NCBI RefSeq assembly: GCF_041248615.1
Contig: NZ_CP158426.1
Direction: 5' to 3' (one strand)
From: Escherichia coli
GTDB taxonomy: Bacteria; Pseudomonadota; Gammaproteobacteria; Enterobacterales; Enterobacteriaceae
Length of the DNA stretch: 64,000 nt
A program made the position numbers and the translations under genes. Below are positions 10,500 to 44,531 of this stretch, one piece after another; the first letter of the stretch is position 1; the number at the start of each line of letters is the position of its first letter. Below the pieces are notes generated by a model. It saw only the letters and a list, made by a program, of their open reading frames with translations, ran no database searches and was not told the origin of the DNA.

Positions 10500-10535
10500 G
10501 TTTTGCGTTTGTCATCATTCTCTAATATGGTTGAC

Positions 10536-27033: not shown

Positions 27034-28935
27034 ATGTCAACCGGATTACGTTTCACACTGGAAGTGGACGGCCTGCCGCCGGATGCTTTTGCGGTGGTTT
27101 CCTTTCATCTGAACCAGTCACTCTCTTCGCTCTTTTCCCTCGATCTCTCCCTGGTCAGCCAGCAGTTTCTCTCCCTTGAATTTGCGCAGGTGCTGGACAA
27201 AATGGCCTACCTGACGGTATGGCAGGGCGATGACGTACAGCGCCGGGTGAAAGGCGTGGTGACCTGGTTTGAACTCGGGGAGAACGACAAAAACCAGATG
27301 CTGTACAGCATGAAGGTGCACCCGCCGCTGTGGCGTGCCGGTCTGCGCCAGAACTTCCGTATCTTCCAGAACGAGGACATCAAAAGCATCCTCGGCACGA
27401 TGTTGCAGGAAAACGGGGTGACCGAATGGAGTCCGCTGTTCAGCGAGCCGCATCCTTCCCGTGAGTTTTGTGTCCAGTACGGTGAGACTGATTACGATTT
27501 CCTGTGCCGGATGGCGGCGGAGGAAGGCATCTTCTTTTATGAGGAGCATGCTTACAAAAGTACCGACCAGAGCCTGGTGCTGTGCGACACAGTCCGCCAT
27601 CTGCCCGAATCTTTTGAAATCCCATGGAACCCGAACACCCGTACCGAGGTGAGCACCCTCTGCATCAGCCAGTTCCGCTACAGCGCACAAATCCGCCCTT
27701 CTTCCGTGGTGACCAAAGACTACACCTTTAAACGCCCCGGCTGGGCCGGACGTTTTGAACAGGAAGGCCAGCACCAGGACTACCAGCGCACGCAGTATGA
27801 AGTGTATGACTACCCCGGACGTTTCAAGGGTGCCCACGGGCAGAACTTTGCCCGCTGGCAGATGGACGGCTGGCGAAACAATGCAGAAACCGCGCGGGGA
27901 ATGAGTCGCTCGCCGGAGATATGGCCGGGACGACGAATTGTGCTGACGGGGCATCCGCAGGCGAACCTGAACCGGGAATGGCAGGTGGTGGCAAGTGAAC
28001 TGCACGGCGAACAGCCACAGGCGGTGCCAGGACGGCAGGGAGCGGGGACGGCGCTGGAGAACCATTTTGCGGTGATCCCGGCAGACAGAACATGGCGACC
28101 ACAGCCGTTGCTGAAACCGCTGGTCGACGGCCCGCAGAGCGCTGTCGTGACAGGACCGGCAGGCGAGGAAATCTTCTGCGACGAACATGGTCGCGTGCGG
28201 GTGAAGTTCAACTGGGACCGCTATAACCCGTCAAACCAGGACAGTTCGTGCTGGATCCGTGTGGCACAGGCGTGGGCAGGCACCGGTTTTGGCCACCTGG
28301 CGATACCGCGTGTGGGTCAGGAGGTGATTGTAGACTTCCTCAACGGCGATCCGGACCAGCCGATCATTATGGGGCGCACCTACCACCAGGAAAACCGCAC
28401 CCCCGGCAGCCTGCCGGGAACAAAGACGCAGATGACCATCCGCTCCAAAACGTACATGGGCAGCGGATTTAATGAGCTGAAGTTTGATGATGCGACAGGG
28501 AGAGAACAGGTCTACATCCACGCGCAGAAGAACATGGATACCGAAGTGCTCAACGACCGTACCACCACCGTAAAACACGATCACCACGAAACCGTAAAAA
28601 ATGACCAGACGGTCACGATCCAGGAAGGTAACCGCCTTCTTACGGTGGAAAAAGGCCACAAGATCACCGGAGTACTGAAAGGGTCTTTATCTGAGGATGT
28701 CTTTCAGGACAGAGGCACGATTGCCGGTTCGGTGCATGTTGACGCTGTAAACAATGGTGGCGAAGGCGACGGTATACAGGCTTATACGGCGATTAAGGAA
28801 ATTTTGCTGGCCGTGGAGGAAAGCAAAATTGCGCTGACGCCGGATGGCATTCAGCTACAGGTCGGGGAATCGACGGTAATCAGGCTGTCGAAGGATGGCA
28901 TCACCATCGTGGGCGGTTCTGTTTTCATCAACTGA
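27034..28935 (+). CDS. vgrG: VgrG spike protein (type VI secretion; Rhs-associated Vgr)
   Basis: 633 aa, gp27/gp5-like VgrG sequence directly upstream of Eag-like and PAAR-Rhs genes. Confidence 0.9.
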   Translation: MSTGLRFTLEVDGLPPDAFAVVSFHLNQSLSSLFSLDLSLVSQQFLSLEFAQVLDKMAYLTVWQGDDVQRRVKGVVTWFELGENDKNQMLYSMKVHPPLWRAGLRQNFRIFQNEDIKSILGTMLQENGVTEWSPLFSEPHPSREFCVQYGETDYDFLCRMAAEEGIFFYEEHAYKSTDQSLVLCDTVRHLPESFEIPWNPNTRTEVSTLCISQFRYSAQIRPSSVVTKDYTFKRPGWAGRFEQEGQHQDYQRTQYEVYDYPGRFKGAHGQNFARWQMDGWRNNAETARGMSRSPEIWPGRRIVLTGHPQANLNREWQVVASELHGEQPQAVPGRQGAGTALENHFAVIPADRTWRPQPLLKPLVDGPQSAVVTGPAGEEIFCDEHGRVRVKFNWDRYNPSNQDSSCWIRVAQAWAGTGFGHLAIPRVGQEVIVDFLNGDPDQPIIMGRTYHQENRTPGSLPGTKTQMTIRSKTYMGSGFNELKFDDATGREQVYIHAQKNMDTEVLNDRTTTVKHDHHETVKNDQTVTIQEGNRLLTVEKGHKITGVLKGSLSEDVFQDRGTIAGSVHVDAVNNGGEGDGIQAYTAIKEILLAVEESKIALTPDGIQLQVGESTVIRLSKDGITIVGGSVFIN

Positions 28936-28962: not shown

Positions 28963-29424
28963 ATGCAGTTCACTTTTAATGAAGGCCACATTCAACTGCC
29001 GTCTCAATGGCAGGATCAGTCAATGCAGGTCCTGGTGTCCACAGATAACAGTGGCATCAACCTGGTCATTACCCGCGAAGCCGTTCCACAGGGAACCCTG
29101 ACACCAGAGCTGTACCAGGAAACGCTGGCGCTGTACCAGGGCAAACTTGATGGGTACACCGAACATGCCTGCCGGGAAATCACTCTGGCAGAGGCCCCGG
29201 CCTGGCTGCTGGATTATTCCTGGAACGGTCCGGAAGATGAGGGGAATCAGGGGCGGATTAGCCAGATAGCCGTATTCCAGCGGCGTGGAGATACGCTGCT
29301 GACCTTCACTTTCAGCACCTCCTTATCCCTGAAGAACAGTCAAAAGACGATGCTGCTGGAGGTGATAAAGAGCTTCACCCCGTTGCCACCGGAGAATGAC
29401 ATCCAAAAGGACCAGCCGCGCTGA
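28963..29424 (+). CDS. DUF1795 (Eag-family) effector-associated chaperone
   Basis: 153 aa small protein immediately upstream of a prePAAR-Rhs effector; position and size typical of Eag chaperones. Confidence 0.7.
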   Translation: MQFTFNEGHIQLPSQWQDQSMQVLVSTDNSGINLVITREAVPQGTLTPELYQETLALYQGKLDGYTEHACREITLAEAPAWLLDYSWNGPEDEGNQGRISQIAVFQRRGDTLLTFTFSTSLSLKNSQKTMLLEVIKSFTPLPPENDIQKDQPR

Positions 29425-29443: not shown

Positions 29444-32400
29444 ATGAGTGAAGGACCAGGCGGGCCACAGGGAGCGACCGCAGGCGGTACGCTGGCAATG
29501 CGAATGCTGTCACAGCAGGCGATGGTCGCCAGCCAGATGAAACGGGCAGCCAACGACAAAGCCATTGCACAGATGCTGGCATCAAAAAAGTCCGGCCCCC
29601 CCGCCGCCAGGCTGGGCGATGAAATTCAGCACAAGAGTTTTTTGGGGGCGCTGGCAGGGGCCGTGCTGGGGGCGATAGTGACCATCGCAGAAGGTTGCCT
29701 GATTATGGCCGCCTGTGCCACCGGCCCTTATGCGCTGGTTCTGGTGCCTGCGCTGATGTATGCCAGCTATAAGGCGAGTGATTATGTGGAGGAGAAACAG
29801 AACCAGCTTGAATCATGGATAAACAGCTTTTGTGACACGGACGGCGCCATCAATACCGGTTCTGAAAATGTAAACATTAACGGAAAGCCCGCTGCCAGGG
29901 CCGCCGTCACCCTTCCCCCTCCTCCCCCACCTGGAGCAATACCTGAAATCCCACAGGGGGAACCCTCATGGGGTGATATTGCCACTGACCTGCTTGAATC
30001 GGCAGCGGAAAAAGCAGTACCACTGGCGAAGGCCTGGGGGAACGCTGTTATCACCCTGACGGACAGCAATGCCGGTTTTATGGATCGCGTCAGCGCCGGC
30101 GCATCGCTTCTGTTTCCCGCCGGTCCGGTATTAATGGAGTTTGCCACCATGGTGGGCGGGCGTGGCGAAATCAAAAAAGACGTGGATTTCCCGGAAGCCG
30201 GTGAGGACACGGCGCTCTGCGACAAGGAGAACAAACCGCCGAGGATAGCCCAGGGCAGCAGCAACGTCTTTATCAACAATCAGCCTGCTGCACGCAAGGG
30301 GGACAAACTGGAGTGCAGTGCGGCAATCGTGGAAGGTTCGCCGGACGTCTTTATTGGGGGTGAGCAGGTCACCTATCTGGATATCCAGCCGGAGTTCCCG
30401 CCGTGGCAGAGAATGATCCTGGGGGGAATAACGATAGCCAGCTATCTTCTGCCGCCAGCGGGACTGCTGGGAAAACTGAAGAATCTGGCGAGACTCGGCA
30501 AACTGGGAAACCTGCTGGGGAAAAGCGGGAAGCTGCTGGGGGCAAAGCTCGGCGCGTTGCTGGGGAAAACAGGTAAGTCGTTAAAAAGTATTGCCAATAA
30601 AGTCATCAGATGGGTAACAGATCCTGTCGATCCGGTAACCGGCGCATACTGCGACGAACGTACCGACTTTACGCTGGGCCAGACACTCCCCCTCTCCTTC
30701 ACCCGTTTCCACAGTTCTGTACTGCCACTGCATGGCCTGACGGGCGTGGGCTGGAGCGACTCCTGGAGCGAATACGCCTGGGTGCGTGAACAGGGAAACC
30801 GGGTGGATATCATCAGCCAGGGAACCACGCTGAGATTTGCCTTCGACGGTGACAGTGATACGGCGGTTAACCCGTATCACGCCCAGTACATTCTGCGCCG
30901 CCGCGATGATTACCTGGAGCTGTTCGACAGGGATGCACTGAGCAGCCGCTTCTTTTATGACGCCTTTCCGGGAATGCGTCTGCGCCACCCGGTGACTGAC
31001 GATACCAGCGATGACCGTCTGGCACACAGCCCCGCAGACCGGATGTACATGCTGGGCGGGATGAGCGACACCGCCAGCAACCGCATCACGTTTGAGCGCG
31101 ACAGCCAGTACCGGATCACAGGTGTCAGTCACACTGACGGGATCCGGCTTAAACTGACGTACCACGCCAGCGGCTACCTGAAAGCCATTCACCGCACGGA
31201 TAACGGCATACAGACGCTGGCGACCTACGAACAGGATGCGCGGGGGCGGCTGACAGAAGCGGATGCGCGGCTGGACTACCACCTGTTTTATGAGTACGAC
31301 GCTGCGGACCGGATCATCCGCTGGTCCGATAACGACCAGACGTGGAGCCGTTTCACCTACGATGAACAGGGCCGGTGCGTGAATGTCACCGGGGCGGAGG
31401 GCTATTACAACGCCACGCTGGACTATGGTGACGGCTGCACCACCGTGACGGACGGCAAGGGCATTCACCGTTATTACTATGATCCTGACGGCAATATTCT
31501 GCGGGAAGCAGCGCCGGACGGCAGCACCACCATGTATGAATGGGATGAATTCCATCACCTGCTGGCCCGTCACTCCCCTGCCGGGCGGGTGGAGAAATTT
31601 GAATACAACGCCGCACACGGTCAGTTAAGCCGTTACACGGCGGCAGACGGCGCGGAGTGGCAGTACCGCTATGATGAGCGCGGCCTGCTCAGCAACATCA
31701 CCGACCCTGCCGGGCAGACGTGGACACAGCAGTGTGATGAACGCGGCCTGCCGGTAAGTCTGGTGTCGCCACAGGGCGAAGAGACCCGGCTGGCATACAC
31801 CGCTCAGGGGCTGCTGTCGGGAATATTCCGCCAGGATGAACGGCGTCTGGGCATAGAGTACGACCACCACAACCGGCCGGAAACACTCACCGACGTGATG
31901 GGCCGCGAACACCACACCGAATACAGTGGTCACGACCTGCCGGTGAAGATGCGCGGCCCCGGCGGTCAGTCAGTGCGCTTACAGTGGCAGCAGCACCATA
32001 AACTGAGTGGCCTTGAGCGCACTGGCACCGGCGCGGAAGGATTCCGCTACGACCGCCACGGCAACCTGCTGGCCTGGACGGACGGTAACGGTGTTGTCTG
32101 GACAATGGAATACGGCCCGTTTGATTTGCCGGTGGCGCGAACGGACGGTGAAGGCCACCGCTGGCAGTACCGCTACGATAAAGACACGCTGCAACTGACA
32201 GAAGTCATTAACCCGCAGGGTGAGTCATATCTTTATGTTCTGGATAACTGCGGCCGGGTGACGGAAGAGCATGACTGGGGCGGCGTGGTCTGGCGTTACC
32301 GCTATGACGCCGATGGCCTGTGTACCGCCAGGGTCAACGGCCTGGAGGAAACCATCCTCTACAGCCGGGACGCCGCAGGCCGCCTGGCAGAAGTCATCAC

Positions 32401-34303
32401 GCCGGAAGGCAAAACGCAGTATGCCTATGACAAATCCGGCAGGCTGACGGGTATCTTCAGCCCGGACGGCACATCACAGCGCACCGGCTATGACGAACGC
32501 GGGCGGGTGAATGTCACCACTCAGGGCCGACGGGCCATTGAATACCACTACCCCGACGAACACACCGTCATCCGCTGTATCCTGCCACCGGAAGATGAAC
32601 GCGACAGACACCCCGGTGAATCCCTGCTGAAAACCACGTACCGCTACAACGCCGCCGGAGAACTGACGGAGGTCATTCTGCCGGGGGATGAGACGCTGAC
32701 GTTCAGCCGTGATGAGGCAGGACGTGAAGTGCTCCGGCACAGTAACCGGGGTTTTGCCTGTGAACAGGGCTGGAATGCAGCCGGTCAGCCTGTCAGTCAG
32801 CGCGCCGGACTTTTCCCGGCAGAAGCCACATGGGGCGGGCTGCTCCCCTCACGGGTACGGGAGTACCGTTACGACAGCGCGGGTAATGTGTCAGGCGTCA
32901 CCAGCCGGGAAGATTACGGACGGGAAACACGGCGGGAATACCGGCTGGACCGGAACGGCCAGGTCACGGCGGTGACAGCCTCAGGCACCGGGCTGGGCTA
33001 TGGCGAAGGCGATGAGTCCTATGGCTATGACAGCTGCGGCTACCTGAAGGCGCAGTCTGCGGGCTGGCACCGGATAAGTGAAGAGACTGACCAGTATGCC
33101 GGAGGCCACCGGCTGAAACAGGCCGGAAACACGCAGTATGACTATGACGCCGCAGGCCGGATGGTCAGCCGCACCAGACACCGTGACGGCTATCGCCCGG
33201 AAACAGAGCGGTTCCGGTGGGACAGCCGTGACCAGCTGACCGGGTATTGCAGCGCACAGGGTGAGCAGTGGGAATACCGCCACGACGCCAGCGGCAGACG
33301 AACAGAGAAACGCTGCGACCGGAAGAAAATCCGCATCACGTACCTGTGGGACGGCGACAGTATTGCGGAAATCCGGGAATACCGCGATGATAAACTGTAC
33401 AGCGTACGGCACCTGGTGTTTAACGGCTTTGAGCTGATAAGCCAGCAGTTCAGCCGGGTACGGCAGGCGCATCCGTCGGTGGCCCCGCAGTGGGTGACAC
33501 GGACGAATCATGCGGTGAGCGACCTGACGGGCCGTCCGCTGATGCTCTTTAACAGTGAAGGTAAAACCGTCTGGCGACCGGGACAGACCAGCCTGTGGGG
33601 GCTGGCACTCAGCCTGCCCGCGGACACCGGCTACCCGGACCCGCGCGGGGAGCTGGACGCGGAAGCCGCCCCCGGCCTGCTGTATGCGGGACAGTGGCAG
33701 GATGCGGAATCGGGGCTGTGCTATAACCGGTTCCGGTACTACGAGCCGGAAACCGGGATGTACCTGGTGAGTGATCCGCTGGGGTTGCAGGGAGGGGAAC
33801 AGACTTACCGGTATGTGCCTAATCCGTGTGGGTATGTTGATCCGCTGGGGCTGGCAAAAACTTCTGTTCCCGTATCAATAGTAGAACCAAAAAAAATCAC
33901 TGGTAACTTTAAAACAATTCGAGAAAAATTAAGGCTTGCCAGGAATGGTGATGTTTCTGCACAAGCCGAAATTGCATACGCAAAATATATGCGTAGTTTG
34001 GGAAAGGATGTGCATTTCAATACACCTCCGAATCGCTCAGTATCAATGGCAGATTTTACAATTGATGGAATCCAGGTTGATACAAAATTATTGAGTGGTA
34101 TAGGCGGAAATGCTGCAAAAAATGTTAACAAGGGAGTTGGCCAGGTGGGAGATAATGGTATCGTCCTGGTAATTAGAAATTCTAATTCCAAAAATACACT
34201 TGAGGAATTTCATGAATTCTTTGGAAACTTCAAACCTAATAATTCAACAGTTCGAGTTGAAGTGATTGATCAATCCGTTTTAGAACCTTTTTGGAGATTT
34301 TAA
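29444..34303 (+). CDS. rhs: prePAAR/PAAR-Rhs polymorphic toxin (full length) with variable C-terminal toxin domain CT1
   Basis: 1619 aa; prePAAR motif AARLGDEIQH (29603-29632), two TM helices, PAAR-like region, many YD repeats, demarcation PxxxxDPxGL (PCGYVDPLGL), then AT-rich 149-aa CT. Confidence 0.95.
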   Translation: MSEGPGGPQGATAGGTLAMRMLSQQAMVASQMKRAANDKAIAQMLASKKSGPPAARLGDEIQHKSFLGALAGAVLGAIVTIAEGCLIMAACATGPYALVLVPALMYASYKASDYVEEKQNQLESWINSFCDTDGAINTGSENVNINGKPAARAAVTLPPPPPPGAIPEIPQGEPSWGDIATDLLESAAEKAVPLAKAWGNAVITLTDSNAGFMDRVSAGASLLFPAGPVLMEFATMVGGRGEIKKDVDFPEAGEDTALCDKENKPPRIAQGSSNVFINNQPAARKGDKLECSAAIVEGSPDVFIGGEQVTYLDIQPEFPPWQRMILGGITIASYLLPPAGLLGKLKNLARLGKLGNLLGKSGKLLGAKLGALLGKTGKSLKSIANKVIRWVTDPVDPVTGAYCDERTDFTLGQTLPLSFTRFHSSVLPLHGLTGVGWSDSWSEYAWVREQGNRVDIISQGTTLRFAFDGDSDTAVNPYHAQYILRRRDDYLELFDRDALSSRFFYDAFPGMRLRHPVTDDTSDDRLAHSPADRMYMLGGMSDTASNRITFERDSQYRITGVSHTDGIRLKLTYHASGYLKAIHRTDNGIQTLATYEQDARGRLTEADARLDYHLFYEYDAADRIIRWSDNDQTWSRFTYDEQGRCVNVTGAEGYYNATLDYGDGCTTVTDGKGIHRYYYDPDGNILREAAPDGSTTMYEWDEFHHLLARHSPAGRVEKFEYNAAHGQLSRYTAADGAEWQYRYDERGLLSNITDPAGQTWTQQCDERGLPVSLVSPQGEETRLAYTAQGLLSGIFRQDERRLGIEYDHHNRPETLTDVMGREHHTEYSGHDLPVKMRGPGGQSVRLQWQQHHKLSGLERTGTGAEGFRYDRHGNLLAWTDGNGVVWTMEYGPFDLPVARTDGEGHRWQYRYDKDTLQLTEVINPQGESYLYVLDNCGRVTEEHDWGGVVWRYRYDADGLCTARVNGLEETILYSRDAAGRLAEVITPEGKTQYAYDKSGRLTGIFSPDGTSQRTGYDERGRVNVTTQGRRAIEYHYPDEHTVIRCILPPEDERDRHPGESLLKTTYRYNAAGELTEVILPGDETLTFSRDEAGREVLRHSNRGFACEQGWNAAGQPVSQRAGLFPAEATWGGLLPSRVREYRYDSAGNVSGVTSREDYGRETRREYRLDRNGQVTAVTASGTGLGYGEGDESYGYDSCGYLKAQSAGWHRISEETDQYAGGHRLKQAGNTQYDYDAAGRMVSRTRHRDGYRPETERFRWDSRDQLTGYCSAQGEQWEYRHDASGRRTEKRCDRKKIRITYLWDGDSIAEIREYRDDKLYSVRHLVFNGFELISQQFSRVRQAHPSVAPQWVTRTNHAVSDLTGRPLMLFNSEGKTVWRPGQTSLWGLALSLPADTGYPDPRGELDAEAAPGLLYAGQWQDAESGLCYNRFRYYEPETGMYLVSDPLGLQGGEQTYRYVPNPCGYVDPLGLAKTSVPVSIVEPKKITGNFKTIREKLRLARNGDVSAQAEIAYAKYMRSLGKDVHFNTPPNRSVSMADFTIDGIQVDTKLLSGIGGNAAKNVNKGVGQVGDNGIVLVIRNSNSKNTLEEFHEFFGNFKPNNSTVRVEVIDQSVLEPFWRF

Positions 34304-34307
34304 AAAT

Positions 34308-34784
34308 ATGATCACCAAATCAAGTATACTCATAGAGTATAAAGATAAAAGTAAACTAACCGAAAGTATTTATAAGTTTGTAAATGCTCTAGATATTGAC
34401 TTTTCGATATTAAAATATGACTACTTTGATGTAAATGAGTATAAAAAAAATATTACTTATGACACATCTTTTATTGACAAAGATGCAGAATATATTGAAT
34501 TATTAGCGAAGATTGATTTTTCTTATGAAGTTGATTTCGGCACATCAACAACATCGATTGAAAGCAAGTATCTTCCATCTCTAACTGATTTCATCGCTCA
34601 ATCACTATCACAACAATTAAATTGTAACATAATAACCAGCTTTAAACCATTAAGTGGAGATGAGTTTTGCCCAATAACATATTTTTCAAAAGGTAAAGAA
34701 GTTATCAATTTTACGACATTTAATTCAAATTGTTGGGATGGGGTATACTGGGTAAAAAAAAGGAGGCAAACAAATATCCGCTAA
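34308..34784 (+). CDS. Putative cognate immunity protein for Rhs CT1
   Basis: 158 aa, AT-rich ORF 5 nt after the rhs stop, in the usual immunity position. Confidence 0.6.
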   Translation: MITKSSILIEYKDKSKLTESIYKFVNALDIDFSILKYDYFDVNEYKKNITYDTSFIDKDAEYIELLAKIDFSYEVDFGTSTTSIESKYLPSLTDFIAQSLSQQLNCNIITSFKPLSGDEFCPITYFSKGKEVINFTTFNSNCWDGVYWVKKRRQTNIR

Positions 34785-34902
34785 CGTAGTTTTTCAATAG
34801 CTACACCATGTCACGTAACATGATGCCTGGATATTAACAGAAAGACAGAAGTGGACTCAGCGGTGAGATGAACGCAGCCTGAGTCTGAAGTACGACCTGC
34901 CG

Positions 34903-37233
34903 GTGAAGATGCGCGGCCCCGGCGGTCAGTCAGTGCGGTTGCAGTGGCAGCAGCACCATAAACTGAGTGGCCTTGAGCGCACTGGCACCGGCGCGGAAGG
35001 GTTCAGCTATGACCGCCACGGCAACCTGCTGGCCTGGACGGACGGCAATGGTGTTGTCTGGACAATGGAGTACGGCCCGTTCGATTTGCCGGTGGCGCGA
35101 ACGGACGGTGAAGGCCACCGCTGGCAGTACCGCTATGATAAAGACACGCTGCAACTGACAGAAGTCATTAACCCGCAGGGTGAGTCATATCTTTATGTTC
35201 TGGATAACTGCGGCCGGGTGACGGAAGAGCATGACTGGGGCGGCGTGGTCTGGCGTTACCGCTATGACGCCGATGGCCTGTGTACCGCCAGGGTCAACGG
35301 CCTGGAGGAAACCATCCTCTACAGCCGGGACGACGCAGGCCGCCTGGCAGAAGTCATCACGCCGGAAGGCAAAACGCAGTATGCGTATGACAAATCCGGC
35401 AGGCTGACGGGTATCTTCAGCCCGGACGGCACATCACAGCGCACCGGCTATGACGAACGCGGGCGGGTGAATGTCACCACTCAGGGCCGACGGGCCATTG
35501 AATACCACTACCCCGATGAACACACCGTCATCCGCTGTATCCTGCCACCGGAAGATGAACGCGACAGACACCCCGGTGAATCCCTGCTGAAAACCACGTA
35601 CCGCTACAACGCAGCCGGAGAACTGGCAGAGGTCATCCTGCCGGAGGATGAGACGCTGACGTTCAGCCGTGATGAGGCAGGACGTGAAGTGCTCCGGCAC
35701 AGTAACCGGGGTTTTGCCTGTGAGCAGGGCTGGAATGCAGCCGGTCAGCTTACCAGCCAGCGCGCCGGACTTTTCCCGGCAGAAGCCACATGGGGCGGGC
35801 TGCTCCCCTCACGGGTACGGGAGTACCGTTACGACAGCGCGGGTAATGTGTCAGGCGTCACCAGCCGGGAAGATTACGGACGGGAAACACGGCGGGAATA
35901 CCGGCTGGACCGGAACGGCCAGGTCACGGCGGTGACAGCCTCAGGCACCGGGCTGGGCTATGGCGAAGGCGATGAGTCCTATGGCTATGACAGCTGCGGC
36001 TACCTGAAGGCGCAGTCTGCGGGCTGGCACCGGATAAGTGAAGAGACTGACCAGTATGCCGGAGGCCACCGGCTGAAACAGGCCGGAAACACGCAGTATG
36101 ACTATGACGCCGCAGGCCGGATGGTCAGCCGCACCAGACACCGTGACGGCTATCGCCCGGAAACAGAGCGGTTCCGGTGGGACAGCCGTGACCAGCTGAC
36201 CGGGTATTGCAGCGCACAGGGTGAGCAGTGGGAATACCGCCACGACGCCAGCGGCAGACGAACAGAGAAACGCTGCGACCGGAAGAAAATCCGCATCACG
36301 TACCTGTGGGACGGCGACAGTATTGCGGAAATCCGGGAATACCGCGATGATAAACTGTACAGCGTACGGCACCTGGTGTTTAACGGCTTTGAGCTGATAA
36401 GCCAGCAGTTCAGCCGGGTACGGCAGGCGCATCCGTCGGTGGCCCCGCAGTGGGTGACACGGACGAATCATGCGGTGAGCGACCTGACGGGCCGTCCGCT
36501 GATGCTCTTTAACAGTGAAGGTAAAACCGTCTGGCGACCGGGACAGACCAGCCTGTGGGGGCTGGCACTCAGCCTGCCCGCGGACACCGGCTACCCGGAC
36601 CCGCGCGGGGAACTGGACGCGGAAGCCGACCCCGGCCTGCTGTATGCAGGACAGTGGCAGGATGCGGAATCCGGGCTGTGCTATAACCGGTTCCGGTATT
36701 ACGAGCCGGAAACAGGGATGTACCTGGTGAGTGATCCGCTGGGGTTGCTGGGGGGTGAGCAGACTTACCGGTATGTGCCGAATCCGTGTGGGTATGTTGA
36801 TCCTTTGGGATTAGCAACATGTCCCATAATCAGACAACGGGTGCTGGCTAACCTTGAAGCCAGTCGGGCAGCAAGGGCTGCATCTAATTTTGGTAAGAAA
36901 AATATCTATGATTTTATCAAGGCAACTCAATCTGCTATCCCTGGCACCTCTATCCCAAAATCTTTTGAGATTATAACTGCTAATGGTACTTTCTGGGTAC
37001 ACCCAAATGCTACAAAACATATGGCTGAATATTTGACTCGGAACGGTCTCTCACATTCAACTTCTGTAGAGAGCCAAATAATGTTAACAAGTTTTCACGA
37101 AGCTGTAAGTTTGGCTAGTGCTCAAGGTATAAAGTATGAAGAAATGATGAATGTTGGCGGCTGGGAACTAGTATTTAGTCAAGCTAAATCTGACTCGGCT
37201 TTATCAGTTATTAAACATGCTCTTTATAAATGA
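34903..37233 (+). CDS. rhs: Orphan 5'-truncated rhs fragment (core repeat plus distinct C-terminal toxin CT2)
   Basis: 776-aa ORF with GTG start; 34892-36813 nearly identical to main rhs 31932-33853; PxxxxDPxGL followed by unrelated 139-aa CT. Confidence 0.85.
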   Translation: MKMRGPGGQSVRLQWQQHHKLSGLERTGTGAEGFSYDRHGNLLAWTDGNGVVWTMEYGPFDLPVARTDGEGHRWQYRYDKDTLQLTEVINPQGESYLYVLDNCGRVTEEHDWGGVVWRYRYDADGLCTARVNGLEETILYSRDDAGRLAEVITPEGKTQYAYDKSGRLTGIFSPDGTSQRTGYDERGRVNVTTQGRRAIEYHYPDEHTVIRCILPPEDERDRHPGESLLKTTYRYNAAGELAEVILPEDETLTFSRDEAGREVLRHSNRGFACEQGWNAAGQLTSQRAGLFPAEATWGGLLPSRVREYRYDSAGNVSGVTSREDYGRETRREYRLDRNGQVTAVTASGTGLGYGEGDESYGYDSCGYLKAQSAGWHRISEETDQYAGGHRLKQAGNTQYDYDAAGRMVSRTRHRDGYRPETERFRWDSRDQLTGYCSAQGEQWEYRHDASGRRTEKRCDRKKIRITYLWDGDSIAEIREYRDDKLYSVRHLVFNGFELISQQFSRVRQAHPSVAPQWVTRTNHAVSDLTGRPLMLFNSEGKTVWRPGQTSLWGLALSLPADTGYPDPRGELDAEADPGLLYAGQWQDAESGLCYNRFRYYEPETGMYLVSDPLGLLGGEQTYRYVPNPCGYVDPLGLATCPIIRQRVLANLEASRAARAASNFGKKNIYDFIKATQSAIPGTSIPKSFEIITANGTFWVHPNATKHMAEYLTRNGLSHSTSVESQIMLTSFHEAVSLASAQGIKYEEMMNVGGWELVFSQAKSDSALSVIKHALYK

Positions 37234-37763
37234 CGATTATGCTTACATTAGAAAATGAAACAAACTACAAAGATGTTGTTGTTAATATAGATGAATTTGT
37301 ACCTTTTGATATAACTTTTGGAAAGGGGAGCGAACAGTGTTTGTACTGGAGAGGCGGCAATGGTAAAAGTTCTTTGGTTGAAGTTGGGTTAAATATGTAC
37401 AGCGGAGAAGTAAGTAACATCACACTAGCAAATATCGATTCAGGTGAAATTAACATTACAGATGAGATGTTAGCCAACAACCTTCCTGAAATACAAGGGT
37501 CTGTTATATTTCAGACAAGCGAGTGGCTTAATAAAGACATTTCCGAATACTCAAACAGATTTATTGATGATTTTGATTGCAATATCAAGTTAATAATTGG
37601 TAGTAATTACATTAAATTATTATTTAAAAAAGCAACAAATCCCATTTGTTATATCATTAATAGGAATATAAGATTTGGTTTTTCTTTGAGTAGGGAACTT
37701 TCGACATTGGAAATATTAGACCTCAATCAAGAAAAATTAGATATTCTAAAGTTATTTAAATAG
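37230..37763 (+). CDS. Putative cognate immunity protein for orphan CT2
   Basis: 177 aa AT-rich ORF whose ATG overlaps the rhs-CT2 stop (ATGA). Confidence 0.6.
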   Translation: MTIMLTLENETNYKDVVVNIDEFVPFDITFGKGSEQCLYWRGGNGKSSLVEVGLNMYSGEVSNITLANIDSGEINITDEMLANNLPEIQGSVIFQTSEWLNKDISEYSNRFIDDFDCNIKLIIGSNYIKLLFKKATNPICYIINRNIRFGFSLSRELSTLEILDLNQEKLDILKLFK

Positions 37764-38242
37764 TTTTAGTGTTTGAAACTTACCGAGAGATGATAGCTAT
37801 GAATGAATACAAAAACATCCATCTTGGAGGAAACAATGGAATGTTAATCCATTAAAAAACATACTTCAATATCTTTAGTGAAGAAAGAGTTGTATGAAAG
37901 AAATATATCTTATGTGAGCGACATGATGCATGCTAATTATATTATTGGCCGGAAATTTTATGATGATAGCAAAAAGGAGGGGTTATTTCTGTAAGAATGG
38001 ATATACCCGCAGGGTTTGAACCAGACATTTATTTGTTGAAGTCTAAGATCCAAATGGAAGCATTTATATCCCTCAGATATTATGCGTTGACGGGTTGATA
38101 AAGATACTTTTAGAGGGTTAATAAATGGAGAACGTATAATAAATCTCTTAAACAAACTATAACCTGTACTAATGAAAAAAATGGGAATAGATAAGTTAAT
38201 AGCCTATTCTAAAAATGGTAAAGTGGTTTTACTTCCAAAATA

Positions 38243-38686
38243 ATGGAGTTTAGTATGAAAATCGAAGCTAATTCCCTTACTCATCCCTATGACTACAACG
38301 CCTCACTGAACAATTATTTACATTATTTTGAGAATTTCTCTCGTAATGACTGGAATAAAGATTCATGTGGAGGATATTTTACTTTTAGAGATGATGACAG
38401 AGAGTGTGTTTTGTTTTTTGTGAATTATGGTGATAATTTTTCATTGCGCTATGATTGTACACAAAGTTCTGATGGAATAGTGTCATGCTGGTATAGTAAC
38501 CATGAAGATGATAAAATGAATATCATCGTCGATGCTGATACAGAACAATTTATCCCTTTAGGTTCTTGCTTACCTCCTGATATTACTTTATCAGTAATAA
38601 AAGATTTTTTCAAAAATCCTTTAGAGAAATCAAAAAAAGTAAAATGGATGAATGCAGATGACATTGACTGGTCATCTGTGTATTAA
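38243..38686 (+). CDS. Hypothetical protein, possible orphan immunity protein
   Basis: 147 aa AT-rich ORF inside the Rhs island with no adjacent toxin; no recognised motif. Confidence 0.4.
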   Translation: MEFSMKIEANSLTHPYDYNASLNNYLHYFENFSRNDWNKDSCGGYFTFRDDDRECVLFFVNYGDNFSLRYDCTQSSDGIVSCWYSNHEDDKMNIIVDADTEQFIPLGSCLPPDITLSVIKDFFKNPLEKSKKVKWMNADDIDWSSVY

Positions 38687-38911
38687 AGTTGGATTGGATA
38701 ATTATCTGTTTCAAAAATCATTAAATTTAGAACCTATCTGTTCAACAGAGCTGCCTTGAACAGCAGGTTCTTTTATGATGTCCAGGAGCGAATATGCCTG
38801 TGATGTCTGGCACTCAGCATCTGACTGACCTGGACTACTGATCCTACTCACACAGGGAGCTAGACCTGGAAGCAACCTACTGTAAGCAGTGCAGTAGCAG
38901 CCCACCTCACA

Positions 38912-38950
38912 TCAGTCCTTGCAAGGTGTGGGCCTTTGTGATCTTGCTCT
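38912..38950. mobile_element. Degenerate remnant resembling the right terminus of an H-repeat/ISAs1-family element
   Basis: About 31 of 40 nt identical to the right end of the complete H-repeat copy at 44492-44531. Confidence 0.3.
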
Positions 38951-39297
38951 GTATTGCTGAGATCCTCAGGAAGGACTCGAAATTTAATCAGGAAGGCCGT
39001 TGCTAAAAATCAAAAAATAAATTCAAGAGCAATTTCTAAAACTTTTGAATCTACTGTATCGGATGAGGTTTTCACTCCTTTCCAAAAGGTGAGTTTTCAA
39101 GCATTCAAGTTTCTGTTATGACCAAAACTTCACCATTTAACACTAATCCGAGTATTATGTTACCATGAAGAAAAAAGATATTAGATTTGCAATATCCATT
39201 AACTCCAACTCAAGTAAGATAGAATTAATGGAAAAATTAAAAACATAATCCCAGGGCTTATTGAAATAACTCCCAGTGCATTAAGAGAAGAAAAAAC

Positions 39298-39513: not shown

Positions 39514-39577
39514 TGACCTCTACATATATCCTCAGTTCGTGGCTGGTATTACATGATCTGACAGGGAAAGATCGTAG

Positions 39578-39873
39578 CGAAATCAAAAAAGACGTGGATT
39601 TCCCGGAAGCCGGTGAAGACACAGCGCTCTGCGACAAGGAGACTAAACCGCCGAGGATAACCCAGGGCAGCAGCAACGTTTTTATCAACAATCAGCCCGC
39701 CGCGCGCAAGGGGGACAAACTGGAGTGCAGTGCGGCGATCGTGGGAGGTTCGCCGGACGTCTTTATTGGGGGTGAGCAGGTCACCTATCTGGATATCCAG
39801 CCGGAGTTCCCGCCGTGGCAGAGAATGATCCTGGGGGGAATAACGATAGCCAGCTATCTTCTGCCGCCAGCGC
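39578..39873 (+). pseudogene. Fragment of a PAAR-Rhs N-terminal (PAAR) region
   Basis: About 296 bp nearly identical to main rhs 30166-30461; lies in track ORF 39513-39890; abutted on the right by H-repeat end sequence. Confidence 0.75.
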
Positions 39874-40401: not shown

Positions 40402-41100
40402 TTGAAGGTAACGTGGAGTGGTGGGCGGAGCAGCCTGCCCGCAGACACAGACTACCCGGACCCGCGCGGGGAGCGGGACGCGGAAGCCGACCCCGGCCTG
40501 CTGTATGCAGGACAGTGGCAGGATGCGGAATCCGGACTGTGCTATAACCGGTTCCGGTATTACGAGCCGGAAACCGGGATGTACCTGGTGAGTGATCCCC
40601 TGGGGTTGCTGGGGGGTGAGCAGACTTACCGGTATGTGCCTAATCCTAGTGGGTATGTTGATCCTCTGGGATTAGCAACGTGTCCTATACTCAGACAGTG
40701 GGCGCTGACTAACCTTGAAGCCAGTCGGGCAGCAAGGGCTGCATCTAATTTTGGTAAGCCTCTGGTCCAGCGAAATAAAACGATTGGCGATAAAGTAAGG
40801 GATATGATTGCCAAAGAGAGGGGAACCACTCTAATTGAACAAAATTATAGAGTGACAGGAGGATTAAAGCGTATTGACGTTGTTGATGGAGTAACGGGTA
40901 TAGAATCTAAAGTCGGTCGAACAGGGTTAACAACCCGAGTACGGCAAGAGGTAGCGCGGGATATTAAGATTTTGAGAAGTGAGCAACTTGATCAAATTGA
41001 ATGGGTGTTTACAAGAAGTTCAACTACAGGGAAGATTGGGCCAACTAAACCACTTGAAGATCTTTTAAATAAACATGGTATACCGATTATTTATCGATAA
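40402..41100 (+). CDS. rhs: Orphan rhs C-terminal fragment (short core remnant plus toxin CT3 with possible PD-(D/E)xK-like motif)
   Basis: 232-aa ORF with TTG start; 40432-40674 homologous to the end of the main rhs core; PxxxxDPxGL then 141-aa CT containing RIDVVDGVTGIESK. Confidence 0.8.
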   Translation: MKVTWSGGRSSLPADTDYPDPRGERDAEADPGLLYAGQWQDAESGLCYNRFRYYEPETGMYLVSDPLGLLGGEQTYRYVPNPSGYVDPLGLATCPILRQWALTNLEASRAARAASNFGKPLVQRNKTIGDKVRDMIAKERGTTLIEQNYRVTGGLKRIDVVDGVTGIESKVGRTGLTTRVRQEVARDIKILRSEQLDQIEWVFTRSSTTGKIGPTKPLEDLLNKHGIPIIYR

Positions 41101-41111: not shown

Positions 41112-41681
41112 GTGAAACTCAAACCGATTGGTGACTTTTTAAACAAAAATGGGTTTATAAAAAATGGTAACAATGATTTTTATAAAGTTCATGATAAGTT
41201 TGTAAATTGTATAAATTTTCAAAAAAAGAGTACAGGTGATATTTTTTTTATAAACACAGGTGTTCATCCTGTGTTCGAAAATTTTTGCAATGAACCACCG
41301 AAAAAAGAAATAGATTGTTACATCCGTAACCGTGTGTGTGATGGACTAAGTATATCTTTGCTGCATTCTTTTGAAGGTAGTGAGTTTGTTATCAGTGAGA
41401 TAAAAAACAAAGCGTTTTGTTTTTTTGAATACTTTGATTCATTGAATAAAATATTCGATGCTATTCGTGTTGTAGATATTGAAGAGAGAAATATTTGCGA
41501 TGAGCTAAGTGGTGTAAGCAGCGTAAGATTAGCTTTGATGTGTATGAACTACCAGTATGAGAAAAAAAAATTTAGCCTTGTTTCTGATTTTGCGAACTAT
41601 GGTCTTGCTATATCTAGAGGCCCGGTACCGAAAAAAGCATTGGATTTGCCCCTATATTTCCAGACACCTGTTATCACTTAA
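41112..41681 (+). CDS. Putative immunity protein for CT3, 3' end disrupted by IS2
   Basis: 189-aa ORF; last 13 codons lie inside IS2; the original frame resumes after the IS2 target duplication. Confidence 0.55.
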
Positions 41682-42557
41682 CCCATTACTGGCCTGCTGC
41701 CGCAGATATTCCCGTGGCGAGCGATAACCCAGTGCACTATGCGGATGCCATTCGTTATAATGCTCGAACGCCTCTGCAAGGTTCTTTGCTGCCGTTAACC
41801 CGTCTGGTTTAGGCATGATACTGATGTAGTCACGCTTTATCGTTTTCACGAAGCTCTCTGCTATGCCGTTACTCTCCGGACTCCGCACCGCCGTGTTCTT
41901 CGGTTCAAGCCCCAATATCCGGGCAAACTGCCGTGTTTCATTAGCCCGGTAGCATGAACCATTATCCGTCAGCCACTCTACTGGAGACGCCGGAAGCTCG
42001 TTGCCGAAGCGGCGTTCCACCGCTCCCAGCATGACGTCCTGTACTGTTTCACTGTCGAAGCCGCCCGTAGTGACTGCCCAGTGCAGTGCCTCACGGTCAC
42101 AGCAGTCCAGCGCGAACGTGACTCGCAGTTTTTCTCCGTTATCACAGCGGAACTCGAACCCGTCAGAGCACCATCGTTGATTGCTTTCTTTCACGGCCAC
42201 TTTGCCAGTATGTGCCCGTTTCGATGGCGGTACAGCGGTTTTTCGCTCAAGCAACAGCGCATTCTGGCGCATGATCCGGTAAACACGTTTGGCATTGATC
42301 GCAGGCGTACCATCAAGTTCGGCCTGTCTGCGAAGCAGCGCCCATACCCGACGATAACCATACGTGGGCAGCTCTCCGATAACATGGTGTATACGGAGAA
42401 GCACATCCGTATCATCTGAGTGACGGCTGCGGCGACCATCTTTCCAGTCATCGGTTCGTCTGAGAATTACGTGCAACTGCGCACGCGACACCCGGAGACA
42501 ACGGCTGACTAAGCTTACTCCCCATCCCCGGGCAATAAGGGCGCGTGCGCTATCCAC
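41652..42557 (-). CDS. insD: IS2 transposase OrfB
   Basis: 301 aa integrase-core protein recognised as IS2 InsD. Confidence 0.95.
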
Positions 42558-42880
42558 TTTTTTGCACGCCCGTATTCAACGGCTTCTTTAAGGAGTTCAT
42601 TTTCCATCGTTTTTTTGCCGAGCAGGCGCTGGAGTTCTTTAATCTGCTTCATGGCAGCAGCAAGTTCAGAGGCAGGAACGACCTGCTCTCCTGCGGCCAC
42701 AGCAGTAAGACTTCCCTCCTGGTATTGCTTGCGCCAGAGAAATAACTGGCTGGCTGCCACACCGTGTTGCCGGGCAACAAGGGAGACCTTCATTCCCGGT
42801 TCAAAACTCTGCTGAACAATAGCGATCTTTTCCTGTGTAGTACGCCGTCTGCGTTTCTCCGGTCCTAAGACATCAATCAT
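42515..42880 (-). CDS. insC: IS2 transposase OrfA (HTH)
   Basis: 121 aa from [14 protein letters not shown]; overlaps insD by 43 nt, consistent with the IS3-family frameshift window. Confidence 0.9.
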
Positions 42881-43023
42881 CTGCTCTCCAATGACTAGTC
42901 TAAAAACTAGTATTAAGACTATCACTTATTTAAGTGATATTGGTTGTCTGGAGATTCATGGGGCCAGTCTAAGCATTTAAGGATATGATAAAAATAACAG
43001 AGTGATACCTAATCCGGTGTAAT

Positions 43024-43242
43024 ACTTGCTGCCTGTGTACCGCGAAGATTAACGGCCGGGAGGAAACTATTCTCTACAACCGGGACGCCACAGGCCGCCT
43101 GGCAGAAGTCATCACGCCGGAAGGCAAAACGCAGTATGCGTATGACAAATCCGGCAGGCTGACGGGTATCTTCAGCCCGGACGACACATCACAGCGCACC
43201 GGCTATGAAGAACGCGGGCGGGTGAATGTCACCACTCAGGGC
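43024..43242 (+). pseudogene. Internal rhs core fragment (about 215 bp)
   Basis: Homologous to main rhs about 32322-32535; bounded by the IS2 flank on the left and the H-repeat terminus on the right. Confidence 0.7.
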
Positions 43243-44531
43243 AGGGAAAGATCATCCAAAGTACACTTTTTGTACTAAATAATTCGCATTTTATGTTTAA
43301 AAATTGAGATATTCCTCATTACCTAAAGCTGTTTTTATTGCTTATACATGATCAAATACTCCTTACATAATTAAGGAGAACAAAATGGAACTTAAAAAAT
43401 TGATGGAGCATATTTCTATTATCCCCGATTACAGACAAGCCTGGAAAGTGGAACATAAATTATCGGATATTCTACTGTTGACTATTTGTGCCGTTATTTC
43501 TGGTGCAGAAGGTTGGGAAGATATAGAGGATTTTGGGGAAACACATCTCGATTTTTTAAAACAATATGGTGATTTTGAAAATGGTATTCCTGTTCACGAT
43601 ACCATCGCCAGAGTTGTATCCTGTATCAGTCCTTCAAAATTTCACGAGTGCTTTATTAACTGGATGCGAGATTGCCATACTTCAGATGATAAAGACGTTA
43701 TTGCAATCGATGGAAAAACACTCCGGCATTCTTATGACAAGAGTCGCCGCAGGGGAGCGATTCATGTCATTAGTGCGTTCTCAACAATGCACAGTCTGGT
43801 CATCGGACAGATCAGAACGGATGAGAAATCTAATGAGATTACAGCTATCCCAGAACTTCTTAACATGCTGTATATTAAAGGAAAAATCATCACAACTGAT
43901 GCGATGGGTTGCCAGAAAGATATTGCAGAGAAGATACAAAAACAGGGCGGTGATTATTTATTCGCTGTAAAAGGAAACCAGGGGCGGCTTAATAAAGCCT
44001 TTGAGGAAAAATTTCCACTGAAAGAATTAAATAATCCAGAGCATGACAGTTACGCCATTAGTGAAAAGAGTCACGGCAGAGAAGAAATCCGTCTTCATAT
44101 TGTTTGCGATGTCCCTGATGAACTTATTGATTTCACGTTTGAATGGAAAGGACTGAAGAAATTATGTGTGGCAGTCTCCTTTCGGTCAATAATAGCAGAA
44201 CAAAAGAAAGAGCCAGAAATGACGGTCAGATATTATATCAGTTCTGCTGATTTAACCGCAGAGAAGTTCGCCACAGCAATCCGAAACCACTGGCACGTGG
44301 AGAATAAGCTGCACTGGCGTCTGGACGTGGTAATGAATGAAGACGACTGCAAAATAAGAAGAGGAAACGCCGCAGAATTATATTCAGGGATACGGCACAT
44401 CGCTATTAATATTTTAACGAATGATAAGATATTCAAGGCAGGGTTAAGACGTAAGATGCGAAAAGCAGCCATGGGCAGAAACTATCTCGCGTCAGTCCTT
44501 GCGGGGAGCGGGCTTTCGTAATCTTGCCCTG
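43242..44531 (+). mobile_element. H-repeat (ISAs1-family) insertion element, complete copy of about 1.29 kb
   Basis: Imperfect terminal inverted repeats cagggaaagatca / (reverse complement) cagggcaagatta; encodes a 378-aa transposase. Confidence 0.8.
43385..44521 (+). CDS. H-repeat-associated (ISAs1-family DDE) transposase
   Basis: 378 aa, recognised as the H-repeat protein family found next to Rhs elements. Confidence 0.9.

Follow-up and report, generated by a model that had tools for sequence, protein, structure and literature searches.

The closest described system is found in Salmonella Typhimurium, where fusion of a main rhs gene with its orphan was shown experimentally in 2014 across 522 bp at 95% identity (PMC3967940), so the idea of main/orphan switching is not new. 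In strain LT2, recombination puts the orphan tip onto the portion of the rhs gene that serves delivery (PMC3967940). Jackson et al. 2009 (PMC2935791) described strings of dissociated tips at rhs "position 4", each accompanied by a same-clade core fragment, and proposed as a hypothesis that a circular molecule (core fragment, tip and downstream gene) inserts by homologous recombination and displaces the old tip. Orphan cdiA-CT/cdiI and rhs-CT/rhsI modules were reported by Poole et al. 2011 (PMC3150448). The Vibrio cholerae T6SS is alike in that, as reported in PMC5361080, incoming effector modules displace residents and leave arrays of retained immunity genes.

The window analysed here is a stretch of 64,000 nucleotides from Escherichia coli NRZ14408 (NZ_CP158426.1), and the locus studied is an island between cusS and nfrB, which is position 4 (nfrB-cusS, clade IV) of Jackson et al. 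(PMC2935791). In common with STM0291/STM0292 of LT2 (PMC3967940), it contains a full-length T6SS-linked rhs gene, an immunity gene, a 5'-truncated rhs-CT orphan and the orphan's own immunity gene, with a direct in-frame core repeat between main gene and orphan. The repeat is longer and closer here (1926 bp at 98%, including an 854-bp perfect tract, vs 522 bp at 95% in LT2), the array has extra tips and fragments (CT3 and a PAAR fragment), and the toxins differ. The fusion is experimental in LT2, whereas in NRZ14408 we infer it, with natural alleles as support. Compared with Jackson et al. [quoted passage not shown] With the modules of Poole et al. (PMC3150448) the locus shares orphan toxin/immunity pairs downstream of the main gene that keep upstream coding homology, tips common to CDI and Rhs, and orphan tips that are on full-length genes elsewhere. 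The orphan tip and immunity gene (CT2 and imm2) resemble CdiA-CT/CdiI of EC869, a pair from a CDI system; however, delivery here is of the T6SS/Rhs type and not CdiB/CdiA, and the retained homology is unusually long. This layout is well known from Rhs toxin loci of E. coli, so the island is a routine example of a mechanism already described.

Organisation of the island and its toxin tips

The island begins with vgrG, an Eag/DcrB chaperone gene and the PAAR-Rhs gene, which are followed by the orphan tip array:

27034..28935, + strand: vgrG (T6SS spike protein), first gene of the island; TIGR03361 E=5.7e-188; RefSeq 'type VI secretion system Vgr family protein'
28963..29424, + strand: DcrB/DUF1795 (Eag-type) chaperone gene; Pfam DcrB PF08786 E=9.9e-26; RefSeq 'DcrB-related protein'
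29444..34303, + strand: main PAAR-Rhs effector gene, full-length, 1619 aa, tip CT1 (Pfam, NCBIfam, RefSeq)
31932..33857, + strand: repeat copy A, last 1926 bp (3' part) of the main rhs core, up to the DPLGL-A boundary (self-BLAST, repeat search, alignment)
32798..33651, + strand: 854-bp perfectly identical tract (35758-36611 in copy B; alignment of copies)
33858..34303, + strand: CT1 toxin domain, GC 36% (AF2 model, fold search; no significant Pfam match)
34308..34784, + strand: imm1, presumed CT1 immunity gene by its position directly after CT1, 158 aa, GC 29%, WP_000629024.1
34785..34891, no strand: 107-bp spacer; the orphan core is cut off on its 5' side at the 34891/34892 junction (alignment)
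34892..36817, + strand: repeat copy B, the orphan's 5'-truncated rhs core (self-BLAST, repeat search, alignment)
34903..37233, + strand: orphan ORF, 776 aa, core fragment and CT2, with a mechanical GTG start (ORF list, domain scans, RefSeq)
36818..37233, + strand: CT2 toxin domain (PDB 7VMC_B, E=8.1e-41 over 125 residues)
37230..37763 (RefSeq start 37239), + strand: imm2, CT2 immunity gene, CdiI EC869 homologue (PDB 7VMC_C, E=3.4e-18)
39573..39872, + strand: 300-bp PAAR-region fragment, 96% identical to 30161-30460 (self-BLAST; RefSeq 'PAAR domain-containing protein, incomplete')
40431..41100, + strand: second orphan, core 3' end of about 250-330 bp and tip CT3 (self-BLAST; Rhs_assc_core match)
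41112..41681, + strand: imm3, DUF4304 immunity gene with its 3' end changed by an IS3 insertion (Pfam DUF4304 E=7.5e-9)
41652..42925, - strand: IS3-family element, two transposase ORFs, found only in NRZ14408 among the strains compared
43031..43242, + strand: 212-bp scrap of rhs core with 94% identity to 32316-32527 and 35276-35487 (self-BLAST)
43385..44521, + strand: ISAs1-family (H-repeat) transposase that closes the island on the right, ahead of nfrB (ORF list, RefSeq)

The main gene is an intact CDS in RefSeq. Pfam matches are prePAAR_I (PF25799, E=1.2e-4, residues 54-100), PAAR_motif (PF05488, E=7.6e-10, residues 266-310) and DUF6531, and the NCBIfam matches are YD repeats in nine stretches (TIGR01643, E=2.1e-70) and Rhs_assc_core (TIGR03696, E=6.8e-19). 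The core ends at a DPxGL-x18-DPxGL boundary (SDPLGLQGGEQTYRYVPNPCGYVDPLGLA), after which an AT-rich variable tip and a small immunity ORF are found. The GC content is about 0.61 in the core vs 0.29-0.39 in the tips and immunity genes; across the main-gene boundary it goes from 0.61 to 0.36 (CT1) and 0.29 (imm1). By its domains and neighbours, the main gene fits a T6SS PAAR-Rhs effector (class I prePAAR, Eag-dependent) with predicted delivery. Judged from the sequence, this is an E. coli locus for T6SS-linked Rhs polymorphic toxins, in which displaced orphan tips stand behind the active gene.

Concerning CT1, a joint Pfam scan covering all tips together with their immunity proteins gave no hit for it, and Pfam on the domain alone returned only a non-significant CdiA_C match (E=0.11). 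The AF2 model has a pLDDT of 96. Its best fold match is 4G6V_A, the CdiA-CT of B. pseudomallei (probability 1.00, TM 0.53-0.55, E=2.9e-3), followed by the restriction endonucleases EcoT38I and MspJI. It has 54 relatives among 1.84 billion representatives. E26 and K65 are invariant and D54 is nearly so. CT1 is a predicted nuclease of the PD-(D/E)xK / restriction-endonuclease fold. Family searches with the imm1 protein gave no hit; imm1 is still linked to CT1 in DETEC-S792.

[quoted passage not shown] Mapped from the 7VMC_B alignment and in the numbering of PMC9071432, the positions of His216 and His281 are both His, and at Arg271 CT2 has Ala, then Lys.

In the downstream array, the second orphan is 94% identical to 36570-36897 and 92% to 33610-33857, and in PapRG-06-3 a full-length Rhs at this locus carries the second orphan's tip, CT3. 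The IS at imm3 is absent in other strains, and colinearity with them stops at about 41641.

The direct repeat and the orphan module

Self-BLAST of the island aligned 31932-33857 with 34892-36817 over 1926 bp with 39 mismatches and no gaps (97.98% identity), and a second repeat search of the window gave the identical pair. An earlier note, made from the sequence alone, had described a near-identical direct repeat joining the main rhs gene to the orphan and had suggested comparing the island against itself; that comparison reproduces the pair. Its start positions (31932 and 34892) are correct, but the ends it gave (33853 and 36813) fall 4 nt short. The copies have the same orientation and codon register, at an offset of 2960 bp. 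Both end directly after the second DPLGL-A codon, the usual core/toxin boundary, and their flanks are unrelated upstream (31932 vs 34892) as well as downstream (33857 vs 36817). Of the differing bases, 29 are in codons with the same amino acid and 10 in codons with a changed one; the example quoted in the note, ggattccgctacgac vs gggttcagctatgac, corresponds to differences at 32041, 32045 and 32050. The mismatches are clustered, and the 854-bp perfect tract is the most efficient substrate in the repeat for crossover or gene conversion. In TUM1226 the near-identical stretch lies elsewhere, at about repeat positions 200-1200, with one mismatch.

Upstream, the orphan frame is closed by a TGA at 34864, and homology begins at 34892. 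No Shine-Dalgarno sequence was found upstream of the GTG at 34903, and domain scans of the ORF gave YD/core matches only, with no prePAAR, PAAR or transmembrane region. This agrees with the earlier description of an orphan lacking the PAAR and N-terminal part and having only a GTG start; there is no credible translation start. RefSeq lists the orphan as an intact CDS in NRZ14408 and as 'missing N-terminus' in TUM1226 and 4621. Its own immunity gene, imm2, is directly behind CT2. In GMF065 and XJ6.1 the same locus contains an intact 4830-nt Rhs-CT2 gene; imm2 sits behind the full-length Rhs-CT2 gene in these two strains and in AR_0067. With a truncated in-frame core, its own immunity gene and a tip that is on a full-length rhs elsewhere, the orphan fits a displaced rhs-CT/rhsI module.

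Fused and double forms among E. coli genomes

An in-silico crossover anywhere in the repeat gives an intact in-frame Rhs-CT2 gene of 4830 nt (1609 aa) and removes CT1 and imm1. The natural GMF065 gene is of equal length and differs from the recombinant by 9-13 aa. The fused locus (Rhs-CT2, then imm2) is exactly 2960 bp shorter and is present in GMF065, KE55, XJ6.1, JNEC-KY178 and the AR_0067 group. At least 52 of the best 60 complete E. coli genomes have the fused form, colinear in one 11,682-bp piece, and five complete genomes have the double form (NRZ14408, 4621, MS 69-1, TUM1226 and OX030728); the fused form is thus about ten times commoner. The prediction that recombination would delete CT1 with its immunity gene and fuse CT2 to the full-length Rhs is therefore right in its geometry, and the product is a natural allele in many genomes. 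The main rhs gene has an internal stop in TUM1226, 4621 and AR_0067. In at least some lineages the locus is decaying and not a maintained switch.

Backbones were compared in six genomes. NRZ14408 (double) has 22 cusRS site differences from the fused GMF065 vs 71 from other double strains, and TUM1226 and 4621 (double) differ from the fused XJ6.1 at 17 sites in the left flank and one in the right. Based on these flanks, the double or fused arrangement does not follow the backbone. A four-sequence test found 14 'concerted' sites, at which the two copies of one genome are each distinct from the two of the other genome (11 of them within 118 bp), and 11 'orthologous' sites, all in the last 200 bp beside the tips. 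The junction of the imm1 3' end, spacer and core, with the same core start nucleotide, is found in 20 genomes ahead of different tips. In DETEC-S792, CT1-imm1 is itself the orphan and is flanked by cores 2960 bp apart, so this strain could donate the cassette. The discordance with the backbone and the concerted tracts show that homologous recombination acts in this repeat in nature; the varied positions of the tracts and the shared junction with varied tips, along with the discordance, show that core exchange was repeated and not single. The concerted pattern could instead come from an independent assembly of the double form out of alleles that were locally identical. Insertion of the unit is the reverse of its deletion, and either event would give the same SNP chimeras.

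Origin of the repeat and its possible consequence

The best interpretation of the repeat is that it was left behind by C-terminal tip displacement and is also a substrate for main/orphan fusion; most likely the locus is a T6SS-linked Rhs locus with displaced tips in which the repeat has both of these roles. By the circular-intermediate route of Jackson et al. 2009 (PMC2935791), a 2960-bp cassette (1926-bp core fragment, CT1, imm1 and the 107-bp spacer) would have entered a resident Rhs-CT2 gene by recombination within its core. After insertion CT1 would be the attached tip, and CT2, with a core fragment and imm2, would be displaced downstream as a silent orphan.

That the repeat is a collapsed or falsely duplicated assembly artefact is effectively refuted: the only point for it is that long repeats are a hazard in assemblies generally, and against it are the 39 differing positions, the unique CT1-imm1 region between the copies and the same architecture in another four complete genomes, which are independent and represent two different backbones. 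The claim of a genuine paralogous repeat is upheld on these grounds. There is a minor chance that the repeat is a static relic, the scar of one old tip acquisition, with the orphan core and CT2 having no continuing role and only the downstream immunity genes kept as protection from neighbours that deploy CT2 or CT3. The orphan's missing secretion domains and ribosome-binding site, the main genes with internal stops in several strains and the 99.8-99.96% conservation of the CT2-to-imm3 region across strains (which fits selection on immunity genes) would agree with this, and the fused form may be just ancestral. However, the 776-codon frame of the orphan remains open, the concerted tracts differ in position between lineages, the arrangement is discordant with the flanks, and one junction stands ahead of different tips.

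Salmonella rhs tips are reported to act intracellularly in a toxin-antitoxin-like manner (PMC7043789), and the orphan might likewise be expressed from an internal promoter or start, with no need of fusion. According to Starsta et al. 2020 (PMC7043789), main and orphan rhs genes both have promoters, located 89 nt upstream of the sequence that encodes PxxxxDPxGL, and E. coli has similar promoter sequences; the intact CDS in RefSeq also speaks for expression. Yet in a scan for consensus promoters the + strand had no site within the orphan core or immediately before it, the number of promoter sites (four) is not in excess of shuffled sequence (5.4 +/- 2.5), the GTG lacks a Shine-Dalgarno sequence, and the 1.9-kb repeat would be left unexplained. 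Self-expression is improbable as the explanation of the locus, and it could coexist with tip displacement.

Under tip displacement, the same-frame, 98%-identical copies would be a substrate for RecA-type homologous recombination in NRZ14408. Unequal crossover or loop-out would remove exactly 2960 bp (CT1 and imm1) and leave a full-length secretable Rhs-CT2 with imm2 behind it, non-reciprocal exchange would homogenise tracts of both copies, and re-insertion of the cassette would undo the deletion. The term 'built-in toxin-switching mechanism' in the earlier note is an overstatement, because a simple deletion loses the immunity gene of CT1. The recombinant would then be sensitive to CT1-armed siblings, and stable switching among them probably needs prior duplication or a silent or dead main gene; it is this sensitivity that led to the duplication-first proposal for Salmonella (Koskiniemi et al., PMC3967940). 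It is more economical to regard the repeat as the scar of a core-CT1-imm1 cassette that displaced the CT2 tip, as in the model of Jackson et al. (PMC2935791). If the deletion does occur, a predicted nuclease of the restriction-endonuclease fold (CT1) would be swapped for a predicted EC869-type tRNase (CT2).

Layout of the Rhs island and its direct repeat

The window matches the chromosome of E. coli NRZ14408 (NZ_LT599825.1) at 100% identity. The island lies between cusS and nfrB in surroundings of ordinary core genome, a site that Jackson et al. 2009 (PMC2935791) listed as 'position 4' among the E. coli rhs sites and as occupied by an rhs of clade IV. In the list below, CT1, CT2 and CT3 are the tips of the main Rhs gene and of the first and second orphans, and imm1, imm2 and imm3 their presumed immunity genes.

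Features of the island (window coordinates)
27034-28935, vgrG (TIGR03361, E=5.7e-188)
28963-29424, DcrB/DUF1795 Eag-type chaperone gene (PF08786, E=9.9e-26)
29444-34303, main Rhs gene, 1619 aa (prePAAR motif, PAAR, DUF6531, YD repeats, Rhs-associated core)
34308-34784, imm1 ORF, 158 aa
between imm1 and the orphan, spacer of 107 bp
34892-37233, first orphan, a core fragment with the different tip CT2
37230-37763, imm2
39573-39872, PAAR-region fragment, 300 bp, 96% identical to 30161-30460
40431-41100, second, short orphan with the tip CT3; its DUF4304 immunity gene, imm3, runs up to 41681
41652-42925, IS3 element, inserted in the 3' end of imm3 in NRZ14408
43031-43242, rhs core scrap, 212 bp
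43385-44521, ISAs1 (H-repeat) transposase, right edge of the island

On all sequence-level criteria tested, the locus is a predicted T6SS PAAR-Rhs effector with orphan rhs-CT/rhsI modules, and it has the architecture that recombinational switching between main gene and orphan would require. The GC content of the core is about 0.61, against 0.29-0.42 in the AT-rich tips and immunity genes. H-repeats are classically associated with Rhs elements, and the core scrap with its adjoining ISAs1 is such a case. The segment 37764-40372 is also AT-rich (GC 0.34 over 37764-39572) and contains three small ORFs (38243-38686, 39298-39513 and 40004-40372), which have no family match in Pfam/NCBIfam scans and may represent immunity genes orphaned in earlier displacements. 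Were the PAAR fragment (39573-39872) to recombine with the main gene (30161-30460), about 9.4 kb would be lost, and with it the greater part of the rhs gene as well as the first orphan. Elsewhere in the window, hokE (type I toxin) is present in two tandem copies about 500 bp apart (11278-11430 and 11781-11933, minus strand), both encoding WP_000956465.1.

Comparison of the island with itself shows one long direct repeat: 31932-33857 in the 3' core of the main gene (copy A) and 34892-36817 in the orphan (copy B) align without gaps over 1926 bp, 39 of which are mismatched (97.98% identity), at an offset of 2960 bp. This bears out the scattered substitutions from which the earlier note had described a paralogous repeat; the example differences it quoted are at positions 32041, 32045 and 32050. 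Its coordinates located the repeat correctly and ended 4 nt short of the true end. The 3' end falls directly after the codons of the second DPLGL-A, where an Rhs core usually gives way to its variable toxin tip, and beyond both ends the flanks of the two copies are unrelated in sequence. Both copies share the codon register; of the 39 differing bases, 29 fall in codons that still specify the same amino acid and 10 in codons with an altered one. The mismatches cluster at repeat offsets 46-244, 441-865 and 1720-1921, leaving 854 bp of perfect identity between the last two clusters (32798-33651 = 35758-36611). A perfect tract of this length within 1.9 kb at 98% identity is expected to recombine readily in a RecA-dependent manner. 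An assembly artefact is excluded both by this self-comparison and because the double arrangement (main Rhs-CT1 plus a CT2 orphan) occurs in five complete genomes: NRZ14408, 4621, MS 69-1, TUM1226 and OX030728.

Concerning the orphan, its frame opens only downstream of a TGA at 34864, and its GTG at 34903 corresponds to an internal valine codon of the main protein. As the earlier note had it, this GTG is the only start: no Shine-Dalgarno sequence was found ahead of it, and no PAAR, prePAAR or transmembrane region was found in the orphan. RefSeq annotates the orphan as an intact CDS in NRZ14408 and as 'missing N-terminus' in sister genomes.

Toxin tips and immunity genes

CT2 matches the tRNase domain of CdiA-CT EC869 (PDB 7VMC_B, E=8.1e-41 over 125 residues) and imm2 matches its CdiI (PDB 7VMC_C, E=3.4e-18). 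When the alignment is mapped onto the published numbering, CT2 retains the equivalents of His216 and His281, the proposed catalytic histidines (PMC9071432); at the equivalent of Arg271 it has Ala then Lys. Since CT2 and imm2 are homologous to this pair, one tRNase module appears to serve both type V (CDI) and type VI (Rhs) delivery systems.

CT1 (33858-34303) has no significant sequence match in Pfam, NCBIfam or PDB; the best Pfam hit is CdiA_C (E=0.11). As a word-indexed protein search returned only 9 close matches, an exhaustive search was used instead, which covered 1.84 billion representative proteins and found 54 relatives, each at the C-terminus of its protein; these proteins differ in length, and Rhs and Hint-domain toxins are among them. 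An AlphaFold (AF2) model of CT1 built from 25 relatives (pLDDT 96) is closest to the B. pseudomallei CdiA-CT 4G6V_A (probability 1.00, TM ~0.54), followed by restriction endonucleases. Within the family a Glu and a Lys are invariant and an Asp is near-invariant, a pattern that fits a PD-(D/E)xK nuclease, and CT1 looks like a member of an unnamed toxin family of this fold. For CT3 the PDB sequence search gave nothing significant, and Pfam/NCBIfam scans of the three tips, the three immunity proteins and the three small AT-rich ORFs identified only DUF4304, on imm3. In PapRG-06-3, CT3 is joined to a full-length Rhs at the same locus (locus coordinates 5435-10839), so all three tips of the array are 'live' somewhere in E. 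coli.

Fused and double alleles and signs of exchange

Joining the main gene and the orphan in silico at any point of the repeat gives an open frame of 4830 nt (1609 aa) ending in CT2, which differs by 9-13 residues from the GMF065 protein. The gene that the earlier note had predicted, a full-length Rhs with CT2 in place of CT1 and its immunity gene, is thus found as a natural allele: at the same site GMF065 and XJ6.1 carry an intact 4830-nt Rhs with imm2 directly after it, in a locus exactly 2960 bp shorter than that of the window and otherwise colinear (the fused form). AR_0067 also has the 4830-nt gene followed by imm2, but as a RefSeq pseudogene with an internal stop. We used the fused locus as a query against 5,426 complete E. 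coli genomes, of which 125 reached 80% coverage; among the 60 best matches, at least 52 align as a single colinear piece of 11,682 bp. In GN02461, TUM14771 and ST2747 the query was split into two pieces, and the span they cover exceeds that in GMF065 by about 264 bp. Counts were taken from a tighter 600-bp junction query and from the whole-locus query; the 403 matches of a looser junction query were set aside because it joined core pieces across other tips, ATCC 8739 carrying a different tip.

The main rhs is an annotated pseudogene with an internal stop in TUM1226, 4621 and AR_0067 (locus coordinates 5445-10304 or 5445-10274). Among the matches listed for the fused-locus query, 48 genomes share the identity and bit score of AR_0067 and may belong to the same clone; the delivery gene may therefore be dead in many carriers of the island, which nevertheless keep tips and immunity genes.

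In cusRS, NRZ14408 (double) has 22 differences from GMF065 (fused) and 71 from TUM1226 and 4621 (double). The latter two have 17 differences from XJ6.1 (fused) in the left flank and one in the right, where NRZ14408 has 34-36 differences from all others compared. Architecture is thus discordant with the backbone on either side, and on the evidence of these six genomes, gain, loss or transfer of the 2960-bp unit (core fragment, CT1, imm1 and spacer) has happened repeatedly.

Both copies of the repeat in NRZ14408 were also compared with both copies in TUM1226. At 14 sites the two copies of one genome differ from the two of the other, 11 of them within 118 bp; another 11 sites, all in the last 200 bp adjoining the tips, follow the distinction between main gene and orphan; a single site is crossed. 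The identical stretch lies at offsets 866-1719 in NRZ14408, and a near-identical one at about 200-1200 (1 mismatch) in TUM1226. Concerted sites together with a shifted stretch of identity are the mark that gene conversion leaves on two such copies. It is a less simple alternative that the double form was assembled independently from alleles that were locally identical, and both require exchange within the core.

The 3' end of imm1, the spacer and the core from the same start nucleotide occur together in 20 genomes. The halves of this junction query are about 70 bp further apart in 14 of the 20 (about 72 bp in A17 and 20KM0223N, the two examined). The tip behind the junction is a papain-fold toxin in DETEC-S792, a zincin-like metallopeptidase toxin in A17 and another tip in 20KM0223N. 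In DETEC-S792, CT1-imm1 is itself an orphan and its flanking cores start 2960 bp apart, so that recombination between them would release exactly the 2960-bp cassette.

Probable C-terminal displacement and other readings of the locus

The best reading of the locus is the C-terminal displacement model proposed for Rhs tips by Jackson et al. 2009 (PMC2935791). A unit of core fragment, tip, immunity gene and spacer would recombine into the resident core and supply the new attached tip, while the previous tip, together with a duplicate of part of the core, is moved downstream. That duplicate would be the 1.9-kb repeat, which, once present, is a substrate for the reverse reaction. This reverse reaction was shown experimentally in S. 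Typhimurium over 522 bp at 95% identity (Koskiniemi et al. 2014, PMC3967940), compared with 1.9 kb at 98% here. In that study the deletion removes the main immunity gene and prior duplication of the locus was proposed; the same constraint would apply here, because a plain deletant loses imm1. Ordering insertion and deletion from chimeric SNP patterns was abandoned, since the two are exact reverse reactions and predict the same patterns.

The array could instead be a static relic kept for its immunity genes alone, which fits part of the data: the segment from CT2 to imm3 is conserved at 99.8-99.96% across strains, and TUM1226, 4621 and AR_0067 have internal stops in the main gene. It leaves the repeated signals of exchange unaccounted for, however. 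The orphan may also be expressed independently as a toxin-antitoxin-like module, which has a precedent in Salmonella (PMC7043789) and could coexist with displacement. A simple promoter scan lends this no support: over 33400-37900, promoter and terminator sites were no more frequent than in shuffled sequence, and none was upstream of the orphan.

Beyond displacement as such, we consider it rather improbable that main gene and orphan exchange recurrently and actively in natural E. coli, with the cusS-nfrB Rhs locus changing at an appreciable rate between arming with CT1 and arming with CT2, gene conversion keeping the perfect tract as a crossover site and sibling killing of imm1-less deletants holding the double form. 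If true, toxin switching at the locus would resemble phase variation and have its own stabiliser, and the locus would be more than a passive scar.

Systems of this kind, their site in the chromosome and their mechanism have all been described before; the principle was modelled in 2009 (PMC2935791) and shown in Salmonella in 2014 (PMC3967940). The additions are modest, namely an unusually long homology (1.9 kb, 98%) and a population-level picture from complete genomes. The window is a clean E. coli example, to which public genomes add both forms, discordance of the flanks (six genomes) and concerted evolution, all of which exemplify a mechanism already known and reveal no new one. Because Rhs tips set which neighbours a strain kills and which attacks it survives, the ability to change toxin without acquiring new DNA bears on competition between strains in the gut.
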